Shown here in pieces: positions 10,601 to 16,600 of a DNA stretch of 64,000 nt (the stretch's first letter is position 1; every line of letters starts with the position of its first letter). The notes beneath the pieces are model-generated. The model was not told the origin of the DNA, did not search any database, and was given only the letters and a program-made list of their open reading frames with translations. Source of the DNA: Hormiphora californensis (lineage: Eukaryota; Animalia; Ctenophora); the NCBI GenBank assembly GCA_020137815.1, contig CM035356.1, positions 1,550,001-1,614,000 on the forward strand. The letters run 5' to 3'. The position numbers and the translations under genes were made by a program.

Positions 10601-13600
10601 CGCGTGATAAGGGAGTGTGGCGCGCCAAATTCCCACGGTTGTTCATTTCTAACGAGTCGAAACGGAAGTTCGACTACCGGTCACTGTTTAGCCGTGTTTT
10701 TAAATCAAATCAATCTAACAATTTCTTTCCAGGCTGCCCTTGAGATAGCAAAGAAGCAGATTGAAGAAGGAGCCCAAGTACTGGATCTTAATTTCGATGA
10801 CGGAATGATTGATGGGCCTCAAGCCATGGCTCATTTTGTTAGATTGATAACAAGTGAACCGGATATATCAAAGATTCCACTGTGTATTGACTCTTCTGAT
10901 TTTCAGGTAGGTTTTATCTGCAAACTGGGCTAATAAACTGAACGCCCCAAACAAACCGTACTGTTTTGTCCTCTAATACCATCAAAATCATCTGGCGACC
11001 CTCTCTTAGGAACCGGCGATAATATCGAATCGAATCGAAAGATCGAGAGATCGGATCGAATCGAATCGAATCGAGTAGTTTTTTGAGCCCAAAGATCGAA
11101 TCGAGATCGAATCGAGATTTTTTGACCGCCCAAAGATCGAATCGAGATCGAATCGAGATTTTTTGAACCCTCAAAGATCGAATCGAGATCGAATCGAAAT
11201 TTTTTGAACGCTCAAAGATCGAATTGAGATCGAATCGAAAGTTTTTGAACCCCAAAAGATCGAATCGAGATCGAATCGAAAGTTTTTTATCACCCAAAGA
11301 TCGAATCGAGATCGAATCGATATTTTTTGAACCCCGAAAAATCGAATCGTGATCGAATCGATATTTTTTGATCCCCCAAAGATCGAATCGAGATCGAATC
11401 GAAAAATTTTGATCGGTCACCCAAAGATCGAATCGGGATCGAGAAGAAAATATCAAGAATCTTCGGTTCCTAGCAAGTAGAAACCGGCGTTATTATAGGA
11501 TCGAATCGAAGGATCGAAAGATCGAATCGAATCGAGATCGAATCGAAAGTTTTTGATCGCACAAAGATCGAATCGAGATCGAATCGATATTTTTTCATCC
11601 CCCAAAGATCGAATCGAGATCGAATCGAAATTTTTTGAAAACCGAAAGATCGAATCGAGATCGAATCGAGATTTTTTGAACCCTCAAAGATCGAATCGAG
11701 ATCGAATCGAGATTTTTTGAAAACCGAAAGATCGAATCGAGATCGAATCGAAAGTTTTTGAACCCTCAAAGATCGAATCGAGATCGAATCGAAATTTTTT
11801 GAACGCTCAAAGATCGAATCGAGATCGAATCGAAATTTTTTGAACCCCAAAAGATCGAATCGAGATCGAATCGAAAAATTTTGGTCGTCCAAAAAAAGAT
11901 CGAGATCGAATCGAGAAAAAAATATCCGGTATCGCCGGTTCCTACGGCCTCTCTCCATCATAAAATGTTATCTGTTAGGTGATTCTAGCGGGACTAAAAT
12001 GTACCCAAGGCAAGTGTATAGTGAACAGTATCAGTTTGAAGGAGGGTACTGCTGACTTTCTGGAGAAAGCTCAACTGGTCAAGAGGTTCGGAGCTGCTGT
12101 CGTGGTAATGGCATTTGATGAACAGGGACAGGTAATTCATGGGATTTAGAAACCTAGGATTGCTTGGGGGTATTACTTTTCTGATTCCCGGACTACATGG
12201 ATGATGTTGTATTCTTGTGTGTGCTATATGTAGTTTCCTACTTTAGGCCGATACATTCGAACGGAAGATACAGATTTGTAAGAGATCCTACGATCTGCTG
12301 GTTGAGCCAGGCTGGCTATAACCCCTGTGACATCATATTCGACCCTAACGTCCTTACAATCGGGACGGGTCTTTCTGAACACGCCCTGTACGGGAAGGAT
12401 TTTATCAGGACTGTCGAGTGGATAAAGGTAAAGTCCGATTTTTTTGAAGTTGTCACCCCCAAACACGTGTGTGACAACTTCAAAAAATCCGACTTTAAAA
12501 ATGTTTTTACATCATGTTATAATATCGCTTGTTGCAATCTGCTATCTCTACATGGTTACATAATACATACCCCCTTCCCACAGACAAATCTACCGGGGGC
12601 ACTAGTATCAGGGGGTGTCAGTAACGTCTCCTTCGCGTTCAGAGGGAACAAGGTCATAAGGGAGGCAATACACTCTGTCTTCCTTTACTACGCTACTAAG
12701 GTATAACGTTGTATCAGCTGTATTCTGGTGTTTCCTCAAATTGTTCGAGGTAGACCCAGCTAAGAGAGAAAGAAAGTGCAGTTAGAGAAAGAGAATGTTT
12801 CGAGAGAGTTTTTCATCTCTGATTCTACATTCCCTCTTTAGGTGGGTCTGGATATGGGTATAGTACATGCTGGCAACCTACCCCTTCTAAAAGACATTGA
12901 TCCAGTCCTTAGGGAGCTTTGCGATGATCTTATCTGGGCAAGGTATGTGCAGCTGTCACTATGGCTTTTTAGCTGAACTCCAATGAGAGGGGTTTAATCC
13001 ACCTCCAGGCTTGGGTAGTACACAGCACAGTGGCCTTTTTCATGGGAGTAGGTGGTCATTAAGGAAAAAATTTTTTATAAACCAAAAGATAGGAAATTGT
13101 CTGGCCTTTCAGATAAAAAAGGTTTCAAGTGCGTACTATCGTATATTATGGTCGAAAAATCAAGTTTTCTTCGTTATTTGACCATAAAAACGCCCTGGAT
13201 GAAGTTTGAAAAAAAATTTTTGAATGAGATATAAATTTGTTCGATTTCTTACTATCAACCACATTTAAATTGTTATGGATCCCCATTTCACCTGCTCCAG
13301 CTAAATTTTAAGTATGGTTGTCAAACCAGCCTAAAAAGACTAAAAACTGAAAAAATACCACTTTCCTCAAAAAATCAAGGCATGAGTGAGGGGTGCATTT
13401 GATTCTACGTCAAAAAAGCTACCAGATAAGCTCATAAAAAATTTTTCGAAAATTTTTCAATTACCCTTCTTTTTGGAAAAACATCACTTTCCTCAAAAAT
13501 TCAAGGCATGAGTGAGGGGTATGGTGCTCCAAATGGCTCATGTTGAATTTCTGTGTTAAATTATAAAAAGCCGAACTAAAAGTGAAAAAAAGTGAAGTGA

Positions 13601-16600
13601 AAACAAAGTGAAGTGAAAAAAAAGTGAAGTGAAAACAAAGTGAAGTGAAAAAAAAGTGAAGTGAAAAAAAAGTGAAGTGAAAATAAAGTGAAGTGAAAAA
13701 AAGTGAAGTGAAAACAAAGTGAAGTGAAAAAAAAGTGAAGTGAAAAAAAAGTGAAGTGAGAAAAAAAGTGAAGTGAAAAAATTAGTGAAGTGAAAACAAA
13801 GTGAAGTGAAAACAAAGTGAAGTGAAAACAAAATGAAGTGAAAAAAAGTGAAGTGAAAAAAAAGTGAAGTGAAAAAAAAGTGAAGTGAAAAAAAAGTGAA
13901 GTGAAAAAAAAGTGAAGTGAAAAATTTTTGATTTGACCTCTTGGTGAGTCACGTGCTCTAAATGGCTCAGGTGGCTCAGGTAGGATAGACGCTTTTTATA
14001 AACCATATTGAGGCCAAACGAAAAGAGATCGAGACTTCTAGTTTTCACTAGCTGGTAGATCTACTAGATGTGTGTGCATTAGGTGGGGTGAACTTTACCA
14101 TCATCTCCAGAAACGTCCTACAGAACGTCTTAAAGTTGTCATTTTTGATACACTGACCAAACTTCTTTGAGCTCAATTTACACCTTTAAAATGGATTCTA
14201 ATCGAAAAATCAAGAATATATTATGGAAAGAGAATTGTCTGAACTTTCAGATACTATATTGCAAATTTTCAGAACCCGAGTTTTAAGGGTCGTAAATCGC
14301 GTCGAAAGTGTTATGACTATGTTAAAATAGATATGACGATATGGCTTTTTTCGCCATAGCGGGTCCAAATCTCAACAAATCCATCTCAAACTTGATCAAT
14401 ATCTTCGACTTGATATTCCGGATGATATTACGTCATCAGTATGACGTCATAACATCGTGACGTCACGTTATGACGTCAAAATGATGTCAAAAATAAAATT
14501 TTCGCTTCATTTTGACGTCATAACGTGACGTCACGACGTTATGACGTCATACTGATGACGTAATATCATCCGGAATATCAAGTCGAAGATATTGATCAAG
14601 TTTGAGATGGATTTGTTGAGATTTGGACCCGCTATGGCGAAAAAAGCCATATCGTCATATCTATTTTAACATAGTCATAACACTTTCGACGCGATTTACG
14701 ACCCTTAGAACTCGGGTTCTGAAAATTTGCAATATAGTATCTGAAAGTTCAGACAATTTTCTTTCCATGATATAGTCTTGATTTTTCGATTAGAATCCAT
14801 TTTAAAGGTGTAAATTGAGCTCAAAGAAGTTTGGTCAGTGTATCAAAAATGACAACTTTAAGACGTTCTGTAGGACGTTTCTGGAGATGATGGTAAAGTT
14901 CACCCCAACTAATGCACACACATCTAGTAGATCTACCAGCTAGTGAAAACTAGAAGTCTCGATCTCTTTTCGTTTGGCCTCAATATGGTTTATAAAAAGC
15001 ATCTATCCTACCTGAGCCACCTGAGCCATTTAGAGCACGTGACTCACCAAGAGGTCAAATCAAAAATTTTTCACTTCACTTTTTTTTCACTTCACTTTTT
15101 TTTCACTTCACTTTTTTTTCACTTCACTTTTTTTCACTTCACTTTGTTTTCACTTCACTTTGTTTTCACTTCATTTTTTTTCACTTCACTTTTTTCACTT
15201 CACTTTTTTTTCACTTCACTTTGTTTTCACTTCACTTTTTTTTCACTTCACTTTTTTTCACTTCACTTTTTTTCACTTCACTTTATTTTCACTTCACTTT
15301 TTTTTCACTTTTAGTTCGCTTTTTATAATTTAACACAGAAATTCAACATGAGCCATTTGGAGCACCATAGAGGGGTGCATTTGATTCTACGTCAAAAAAG
15401 CTACCAGATAAGCTCAAAAAAATTTTTTCAATTACCCTTCTTTTTGGAAAAACACCACTTTCCTCAAAAAATTAAGGCATGAGTGAGGGGTGCATTGGAT
15501 TCTACGCTCGAAAAGCTACCAGATAGGTTCAAAAACAATTTTTCGTAAAATTCTTAGTGACCACCAAAAGACCACTGTGCACAGGGAAGACACCAACACA
15601 CTAATCTAGGCTACTAATTCATCTTCCAGAGAACTCTAACCCTGTGCTATCCACCCAACACATTCATGTATACCATCACAGGACAAATCCTAACCATCCA
15701 TCACCAGGACATCAAATGTATCCTCATCAAAACATATCACCAGGACATACCTTACTCTCGTTAATTAAGCTCGCATATTTCAAGAAACTTTTAAATAAGA
15801 AACTTTTTTTCTAGGAAACTACTGCAGGTGTAAGCACTCCAAAAACAAAAAGAATTTCTCCTTTATCAAGAAACTAAACAAGTTAGGGGTGTTCTATTTT
15901 GTTGTGGTGTCTCTGAATTGAGTGATTTCCATTTGAAAAGTTTCTTATAAAAAAGTTTCTTACTAAAGCGTTTCTTAAAAAACGAGAGTAAGGTATATCC
16001 TCAACTGTATCCTCATCAAAACATGTCATCAGGAACTCCGAGGAGACCACTGAGAAGGTGCTGGCCTACGCTGAGAAAGTGAAAGGAAAGGGAGCAAAGA
16101 AGGTTGAGTCTAGTGATGATGACTGGTTTAGGAAATCTCTGGAGCAACGACTACAAGATGCTATCGTCGATGGTAAGCCCTTTAGAATTAACCCCTAGAT
16201 ATATTGGTGTTTTCACCCATAATTGGTCCTAGGCATTAGGCAACACATAATTAAGGATAAGGGAGTAATTTCTTTCCTCTTACCCATCAACATTTTCAAT
16301 ATAATTTGATTCTCCCCAAGGTATTGACAAGTATATTGTAAAGGATGTCGAGGAGTGTAGAGTCACCTCGGGTCTGTCGCCCCTTGGAATCATTGAGGGT
16401 CCCCTTCTCTCTGCCATGGGGGTGGTGGGAGATCTGTTTGGGAGCGGCAAAATGTTCTTACCTCAGGTAAAATATTTATAGAAACGAAACCATTTCTTGG
16501 AAATGAAACTGCTGCTATCTTTCCTCGTTCACAACAGTCTCCCTTCAATTCTCCCTTCAATTCTCCCTTCAATTCTCCCTTCAATTCTCCCTTCAATTCT

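Follow-up and report, generated by a model that had tools for sequence, protein, structure and literature searches.

Transib transposons are defined by CAC-first termini within a CACA[A/G]TG-like heptamer, and a target-site duplication (TSD) of 5 bp separates them from the CMC group, in which it is 2–4 bp (PMC1131882; bioRxiv 2026.08.26.747230). The transposase expected of this superfamily is a DDE protein of ~700 aa belonging to the Transib/RAG1 clade. As given in PMC1131882, Transib5, Transib2_AG, and TransibN1-N3_AG of flies and mosquitoes, non-autonomous families included, have RSS12/RSS23-like ends and 5-bp duplications, with a consensus CACAATG heptamer, an A-rich AAAAAAATC nonamer, and an RSS12-like 5′ end. 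Subgroup I Transibs have an asymmetric TIR pair, as do some of Subgroup II, and the Subgroup I transposase carries an alpha11-alpha12 region and CTT1 (PMC9435367). The same 2022 report contains Transibs from ctenophores in which the ends are CACAGTGG, the inner block is homologous to that of the element analysed here, and the 5′ and 3′ ends are offset by 10 bp. In its Supplementary Data 2, which we compared by eye, all eight predicted ctenophore ends examined start with CACAGTGG. The second block begins 16 and 6 nt after the heptamer in both PbaTransib_0868 and MleTransib_3931, and a GACATTAAG motif lies at 22 and 12 in MleTransib_2823; the long end is 5′ in each of these three pairs, the published ctenophore ones examined at both ends. 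PbaTransib_0868 bears a 5-bp duplication, and two Mnemiopsis Transib proteins terminate in Cx2Cx3GHx4C, which fits CTT1. Among RAGL transposons, ProtoRAG, PflRAGL-A, and AanRAGL are likewise described with a 5-bp duplication (PMC8289069, PMC10462144, PMC7204232), and an A-rich TR2 adjoins the heptamer, giving AAA at positions 8–10 (PMC10462144, PMC7204232). ProtoRAG is reported to work better on an asymmetric pair (PMC8289069), and the time at which RAG's requirement for asymmetric ends originated is presented as an open question (PMC10462144).

We compared these systems with an element found in the window, that is, the whole 64,000-nucleotide stretch of DNA analysed. The host is a ctenophore as judged by protein similarity: an aspartate aminotransferase piece was 80% identical to a Bolinopsis microptera protein and 98% identical to a EukProt P0001 protein, against at most 70% for named non-ctenophore animals. 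The element lies in an intron of a methionine synthase-like gene with Pterin_bind encoded upstream of the intron and B12-binding_2 and B12-binding downstream; the intron starts with GT at 12943, and its call also rests on the exon translations. The features of the locus are as follows.

12943 to 16030 (3′ end approximate), plus strand: host intron of the cobalamin-dependent methionine synthase-like gene, containing the element
13026 to 15579, plus strand: whole putative non-autonomous Transib-type element, nested insert included, placed by its ends and contig depth
13021 to 13025, no strand: left TSD copy, 5 bp, CACAG, read from the sequence
13026 to 13032, plus strand: left heptamer CACAGTG, read from the sequence
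13040 to 13050, plus strand: 11-bp stretch of the left end only, source of the asymmetry, from the end-to-end alignment
13051 to 13064, plus strand: second conserved block at the left end, GGTGGTCATTAAGG, 18 nt past the heptamer
13348 to 13473, plus strand: subterminal direct repeat unit 1, 126 bp
13474 to 15444, plus strand: subterminal repeat unit 2, 115 bp (13474–13519 and 15376–15444), split by the nested insert, with 111 identities to unit 1
13514 to 13519 and 15370 to 15375, no strand: 6-bp duplication GAGGGG flanking the nested insert, left and right copies
13520 to 15369, no strand: nested, unrelated, palindromic non-autonomous element, 1850 bp, with TATGG...CCATA ends
15445 to 15562, plus strand: subterminal repeat unit 3, 118 bp, extending into the right end
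15553 to 15565, minus strand: second conserved block at the right end, GGTGGTCACTAAG, 7 nt past the heptamer
15573 to 15579, minus strand: right heptamer CACAGTG, read from the sequence
15580 to 15584, no strand: right TSD copy, 5 bp, CACAG

Both ends have a bipartite build of heptamer, spacer, and second conserved element. Read inward, the left end consists of CACAGTG (13026–13032), 23 nt, and TCATTAAGG, and the right end of CACAGTG (15579–15573), 12 nt, and TCACTAAGA. The shared block GGTGGTCA(T/C)TAAG starts 18 nt after the left heptamer and 7 nt after the right one, and when the two ends were aligned globally a single 11-nt gap opened, at the spacer. The heptamer ends, the CACAG duplication, and the 11-bp offset described in the initial annotation were thus all recovered, as was its caveat that the offset alone is independent of where the motif boundary is drawn, whereas the exact values of 12 and 23 are not. 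The vertebrate 12/23 RSS has an identical heptamer consensus and the same 11-bp difference between bipartite ends, and cleavage in that system is confined to synapsed long/short pairs. In contrast, the element lacks a true nonamer, as the annotation had also cautioned: in the 12/23 register the inner motifs match the ACAAAAACC nonamer at four of nine positions, with T at position 5 of both ends and no AA at nonamer positions 5–6, and this nonamer fits better off-register (5/9 at left spacers of 29–32, 5/9 at a right spacer of 14, and 6/9 at a right spacer of 26). Also unlike RAGL transposons, the element has no A-rich TR2 and no RAG1L or RAG2L gene; positions 8–10 are GCC and GTC at its two ends rather than AAA. 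Since no transposase was found either, the label "RAG-family" used for it earlier is not supported in the sense of RAG1L plus RAG2L.

We assessed the chance occurrence of this arrangement in 300 simulated windows with matching dinucleotide composition by scoring inward-facing heptamer pairs at most 5 kb apart. Among 385 such pairs, an exact 5-bp duplication never occurred, a shared block matching at 12 of 13 positions occurred once, and the two never occurred together. The real window contained six inward heptamer pairs, and only the 13026/15579 pair combined the duplication with the block. The ends, duplication, and offset are far beyond chance. Elsewhere in the window, a loose CACAGTG...TCACTAAG at 47388 had no partner end within the window, and a second "shared block" pair (48125/48452) sat inside an unrelated palindrome; both were rejected.

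The element's own length is 698 bp after removal of the nested insert. No coding frame or transposase was found in it, and a comparison of five short Transib-type peptide motifs with the window gave no true match and two spurious ones. The earlier identification of a nested insert was correct, the inserted sequence being 13520–15369 plus one GAGGGG copy. This insert contains 16-bp tandem arrays and 636-bp inner arms (13857–14492 and 14499–15134) that are 98% complementary; no coding frame was found in it. Its TA..TA termini and 6-bp duplication are the signature described for IS3EU (PMC10045372), and by these ends and this duplication length it would be classed as IS3EU/GingerRoot-like. It differs from IS3EU/GingerRoot elements in being a non-coding palindrome with 16-bp tandem arrays, known by its ends and without a transposase. 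This Transib-type copy was the target of a later insertion by an unrelated IS3EU-like element. BLAST detected no second copy of the 698-bp element or of the insert elsewhere in the window.

Contigs from sequencing runs revealed that the element is a dispersed, multi-copy family with sharp boundaries, present in two organisms, so that contig depth and differing flanks bear out the expectation of a family rather than a single copy. Summed contig depth was 14 in the flank and 690–1580 inside the element in run X1, and 230–490 and 14,000–31,000, respectively, in run X3; element depth was also high in run X9, from a second organism (organism B). At the right end, depth stepped down from 6,100–10,600 to 112 in X3 and from 4,300–6,400 to 0 in X10. 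Foreign flanks were joined at 15579–15585 in six loose-end contig rows, and loose ends began at 13025 in run X5. This step-down and these loose ends indicate that the element boundaries are correct. The short-spacer right end was unchanged across many flanks: none of the three runs covering 15547–15579 listed an indel there, no 11-bp insertion occurred in right ends across three runs, and the last 41 nt of the element were present letter for letter in organism B (X10). At the left end, depth over 13040–13075 was far above the flank in all four runs, and the 12 best-supported of 33 left-end indels included no deletion there. Two X9 contigs carried a right end with the heptamer kept and the block lost. 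A long-spacer-like end was joined to a right-type subterminal repeat at 13075–13076 in X1, X3, and X9 and at 15535 in X5; these junctions hint that long-spacer ends occur in a right-end context, and long/long copies may thus occur. The 5-bp duplication was established for the copy at 13021–15584 only, and ends at other loci were unpaired within single copies because the contigs were short. Contigs of X1, X3, and X5 crossed from the flank 20–29 letters into the element without differences (below the 31-letter threshold), suggesting that the insertion is common to these three samples. No empty site was seen, with 12968–13003 uncovered in X9 and positions beyond 15583 uncovered in X10, and run X7, a marine metagenome, had no contig on the right end.

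Beyond these runs, no metagenome or viral contig matched the end pattern when its spacer length was left free. Loosening the pattern yielded 22 metagenome, 15 GTDB, and 4 viral matches; at none of these 41 loci was there a second end bearing a duplication, nor any BLAST match to the element, and they were treated as chance. The three collections (metagenome, GTDB, and viral) thus yielded no relatives of the element. A search of publications outside Repbase and Dfam, where an entry may exist, found no description of the 698-bp family.

The CACAGTG at both ends, the 5-bp duplication of this copy, and the asymmetric TIR pair, a Subgroup I trait represented here by the 11-bp offset, are those of Transib; as sequence characters, the ends and duplication length support this assignment without fixing the superfamily. 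PbaTransib_0868, PbaTransib_8175, MleTransib_2823, MleTransib_3931, and MleTransib_6236, as given in PMC9435367, share with the element the CACAGTGG start, an asymmetry of one helical turn, and the phylum. By eye, GTCATTAAG/GTCACTAAG at 22/11 in this element agrees in eight of nine letters with the MleTransib_2823 motif at the same left register, and the left block shares 11 of 14 positions with the 3′ block of PbaTransib_8175. These five Transibs encode transposases, whereas the element does not; the published offsets are 10 bp (16/6, 16/6, and 22/12) rather than 11 bp (18/7); and the roughly 120-bp subterminal direct repeats are a feature of the element's family that sets it apart from the five. 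Since the spacer sequences differ, none of the five is its direct parent. By analogy with them, the left, long-spacer end is likely the 5′ end, unlike the RSS12-like 5′ end of the fly and mosquito Transibs, from which the element also differs in its second block (GGTGGTCAYTAAG). The initial annotation's proposal of a Transib-type element in an early-branching animal is supported by the ctenophore host and by the resemblance of the ends to those of ctenophore Transibs that carry transposases. The novelty it implied is not supported: asymmetric CACAGTGG ctenophore ends appeared in 2022 (PMC9435367), and Transib ends of the 12/23-like kind were published in 2005 (PMC1131882). A 12/23-like pairing rule is likewise unsupported for this element. 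The new contributions are the non-autonomous family itself and an offset of 11 instead of 10; the kind of lopsided end was already known.

We consider the element most likely (probability about 0.82) to be a multi-copy, non-coding ctenophore Transib whose mobilization relies on a ctenophore Transib transposase acting in trans from a gene elsewhere. An origin of the 11-bp offset as an indel unique to this copy, the family itself having symmetric ends, could appeal to the unpaired ends of other loci, but many copies, and the second organism, have an identical short right end, the depth and indel data over 13040–13075 argue against it, and related families in PMC9435367 show a similar offset, making it very unlikely. 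Still less probable is a derivative of a two-gene RAGL transposon carrying RAG1L and RAG2L. CAC-first heptamers and 5-bp duplications are common to RAGL, and the PflRAGL-A spacer is given as asymmetric by 10 bp (PMC10462144); however, GCC/GTC at positions 8–10 resembles the G-led ctenophore Transib ends of PMC9435367 rather than the RAGL AAA, and Tao et al. 2022 (PMC9435367) classed the ctenophore loci under Transib. Membership in another CMCT superfamily (Chapaev, EnSpm, or Mirage) is the least probable reading: these lineages are described as sharing CA..TG termini and 2–5-bp duplications (PMC12730594), but the duplication here is exactly 5 bp against 2–4 bp for CMC (bioRxiv 2026.08.26.747230), and the second block is homologous to those of the transposase-bearing ctenophore Transibs in PMC9435367.

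A closer contender, to which we give somewhat less than an even chance, accepts a Transib family but regards its asymmetry as inherited and unenforced, the enzyme needing only the heptamer and nearby bases, so that long/long or short/short copies would be equally mobile. The contigs with long-spacer-like ends beside a right-type repeat are consistent with this idea, as is the missing AA at nonamer positions 5–6; RAG1 alone is reported to lack a 12/23 preference (PMC8355894), and it has been proposed that asymmetry matters fairly little to invertebrate RAGL complexes (PMC7204232). Conversely, the one-turn offset with a long 5′ end is kept in all three pairs of PMC9435367 and here despite differing spacer sequences, and right ends with an 11-bp insertion were absent from three runs.

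For the non-autonomous Transib reading, Transib and RAG biochemistry suggests that a transposase dimer would bind both heptamers, cleave by a nick and hairpin formation on the flanks, and insert with a 5-bp stagger. The second block would likely be read by NBD-like or CTT domains of the transposase, and an offset of 10–11 bp would present it on one and the same face of the helix at the two ends, so that the predicted enzyme may, at even odds, favour pairing a long end with a short one. We rate a strict 12/23-type rule as less likely than such a preference, and it is similarly doubtful that the cognate transposase is a single-gene, RAG2-free Transib strictly requiring a long and a short end whose lengths differ by exactly 11 bp.

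The element adds one non-autonomous family, with an offset equal to the RSS value of 11 bp, to the published ctenophore Transibs. As a natural substrate with many copies, the family allows counts of long/short versus long/long copies and tests with a RAG2-free transposase; the published autonomous ctenophore Transibs permit nearly the same test, and for them the enzyme is already available. If the strict 11-bp long/short requirement were true, a 12/23-type rule would predate both RAG2 capture and vertebrates, in a comb-jelly transposon.

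The host element (13026–15579), in which a long-spacer left end faces a short-spacer right end, lies within an intron and is split by a nested insert.

Host element, its setting and the insert
12943: GT of the intron of a methionine-synthase-like gene that holds the host element
13026–13032, plus strand: left heptamer CACAGTG, seen in the sequence
13520–15369: nested insert, 1850 bp, with a GAGGGG duplication (6 bp) on either side
15579–15573, minus strand: right heptamer CACAGTG, seen in the sequence

CACAG immediately flanks the element on both sides as a 5-bp target-site duplication (shown for this copy only), and the block GGTGGTCA(T/C)TAAG begins 18 nt past the heptamer on the left and 7 nt past it on the right; the heptamers, duplications and block positions claimed in the initial annotation were all present. 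Inward alignment of the two ends required a single 11-nt gap (13040–13050) and, deeper, a 7-nt gap of opposite sign, after which a fainter similarity continued. Among 385 inward-facing heptamer pairs from 300 simulated windows, an exact 5-bp duplication occurred in 0/385, a shared 12-of-13 block in 1/385 and both in 0/385. The window itself contains six such pairs, and duplication and block occur together only in that of the host element. At spacers 12 and 23, the nine letters match ACAAAAACC at 4/9 positions, with T at essential position 5, in agreement with the earlier remark that the inner motif is not the nonamer. Other spacers give better ACAAAAACC matches, and the values 12 and 23 depend on the register chosen, as had been cautioned. 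Elsewhere, a lone CACAGTG at 47388 is followed 6 nt on by TCACTAAG, an octamer identical to that of the right-end block; no partner end was found within the window, and this motif is either chance or a relic.

Without the insert the element is 698 bp long, with three direct repeats of 115–126 bp toward its right end. All 27 stop-to-stop frames of at least 40 aa across it were short or repeat-derived, and a search of all six window frames for five short Transib-type peptide motifs yielded two matches, both spurious. The cognate transposase was not found in the element or the window, and an end-pattern scan of metagenome and viral contigs returned no matches. A looser end pattern gave 41 matches in the metagenome, GTDB and viral collections, all attributed to chance by partner-end and BLAST checks. 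The methionine-synthase-like gene has a pterin-binding piece upstream and B12-binding pieces downstream of the element. An aspartate aminotransferase piece (3327–3953) is 98% identical to EukProt protein P0001 and 80% to the Bolinopsis microptera protein, while no named animal outside the ctenophores exceeds 70% in the 120 matches listed; the host of the DNA is a ctenophore.

The nested insert is a near-perfect palindrome (TATGG...CCATA ends) whose 636-bp inner arms show 98% complementarity, and it carries 16-bp tandem arrays of the (AAGTGAAGTGAAAAAA)n type. Since it shares TA..TA ends and 6-bp duplications with the IS3EU/GingerRoot signature, as outlined in part of PMC10045372, it is likely an unrelated, later-arriving element. 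Contig depth was also elevated at its ends. Two motifs recur in both elements (13088–13115 and 14226–14253, 82% over 28 nt; 13145–13164 and 14195–14214, 85% over 20 nt), possibly a host-factor site of different non-autonomous transposons.

Assembled contigs of public runs were aligned separately to the left end (X1, X3 and X5 of organism A; X9 of organism B) and the right end (X3, X5, X10 of organism B, and X7, a marine metagenome). Summed contig depth, which is not copy number, rose at the left end from 14 in the flank to 690–1580 inside (X1) and from 230–490 to 14,000–31,000 (X3); over 13040–13075 it was 280, 7,555, 2,783 and 9,531 in X1, X3, X5 and X9. The last 26 nt of the right end stood at 6,100–10,600 in X3 (flank, 112), 8,400–10,900 in X5 (490–1,620) and 4,300–6,400 in X10 (0), and no X7 contigs aligned there. 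No substitutions were listed within 13026–13131 in the left-end runs and no indels in 15547–15579 in the right-end runs with cover (X3, X5 and X10); the final 41 nt were unaltered in organism B. Other flanks were entered at 15579–15585 in 6 of the 18 loose-end rows listed (26 in all). The element clearly belongs to a multi-copy family, present in two organisms, whose short right end is stable.

The expectation that other copies keep the 11-bp offset held in part: the short right end is stable, and the best 12 of 33 left-end indels include none that deletes the 11-bp stretch. Some odd long-spacer contigs complicate the picture. In X1, X3 and X9, contigs run from the left end to 13075–13076 and then into the right-type repeat reversed, and one X5 contig, read inward, fuses a long-spacer-like end to this repeat. 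These short contigs may represent either long/long copies or a sister family whose inverted arms are longer. Two X9 contigs have the right heptamer and lack the block. Loose ends at 13076–13077 (X1, X5 and X9) join the interior from 13077 to different upstream sequence in both organisms, so another family or variant has the same interior without this left end.

Other features in the window
11007–11944: palindromic/inverted-repeat element, MITE type, with internal tandem repeats
17316–19192, minus strand: exon-like frame of ~160–200 aa in three tandem copies (94% identical DNA); no Pfam match in the single copy scanned
26126–26607: palindromic/inverted-repeat element, MITE type
36783–38126, plus strand: 447-aa open frame without a Pfam match
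43274–43612: palindromic/inverted-repeat element, MITE type
47853–48724: palindromic/inverted-repeat element, MITE type, with CACAGTG pairs inside
~50535–51280: inverted-repeat element
52403–53305 and 53843–54745: 903-bp duplication, 100% identical, flanking a 100-N gap (53306–53405); probably an assembly artefact

In X3, one right end breaks off at 15569 and is followed by sequence that matches the first letters of the ~50535–51280 element; at another locus, therefore, this element seems to have inserted a copy into the host family's right end.

Transib families, some non-autonomous, with ends resembling RSS12 and RSS23 are described in sections of Kapitonov and Jurka (PMC1131882). Six Transib-like proteins were identified in ctenophores, and Subgroup I Transib was defined with every TIR pair asymmetric (Tao et al., PMC9435367). 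We compared ctenophore Transib ends by eye, using parts of Supplementary Data 2 of that paper, which holds five ctenophore Transib loci, and its TIR marks. In these parts, the predicted ends start with CACAGTGG in 8/8; the second block, the motif inward of the heptamer common to both ends, lies 16 nt (5′) and 6 nt (3′) past the heptamer in PbaTransib_0868, which has a 5-bp duplication, and likewise in MleTransib_3931, and GACATTAAG lies at 22/12 in MleTransib_2823. The GTCATTAAG/GTCACTAAG of the host element, at 22/11, match MleTransib_2823 at 8/9 letters in an identical left register, and its 14-nt left block matches the 3′ block of PbaTransib_8175 at 11/14. Heptamer, block and one-turn offset are thus common to the host element and these transposase-bearing Transibs, although the offset is 11 bp in the former and 10 bp in the latter. 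Because the spacers differ, none of the five loci, as far as these parts go, is its direct parent. RAGL (RAG1L+RAG2L) ends carry an A-rich TR2 after the heptamer, according to portions of PMC7204232 and PMC10462144, which is absent from the host element. CMC elements produce 2–4-bp duplications, and transposase homology is not to be overridden by ends or duplication length (bioRxiv 2026.08.26.747230). The host element is non-coding and multi-copy with Transib-type bipartite, asymmetric ends like those of transposase-bearing ctenophore Transibs, and the earlier assignment to Transib is likely right (probability about 0.82).

By established Transib/RAG chemistry, a Transib dimer would mobilise the host element in trans, cleave at the heptamers by nick-and-hairpin and insert it via a 5-bp stagger. 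More tentatively, an NBD-like or CTT domain might read the second block, and the 10–11-bp offset might hold that block on a single helical face, so that the enzyme may, at roughly even odds, favour a long/short pair; ProtoRAG favours its asymmetric pair, as an excerpt of PMC8289069 indicates. A strict, RAG2-free 11-bp pairing rule is an unlikely candidate, because RAG1 alone has no 12/23 preference in the portion of PMC8355894 concerned and because of the odd long-spacer contigs. No description of the family was found in the literature searched, a scope outside Repbase and Dfam. That an early-branching animal carries RSS heptamers at ends offset by one helical turn has been in print since 2022, and the host element is a new non-autonomous family of a known type.
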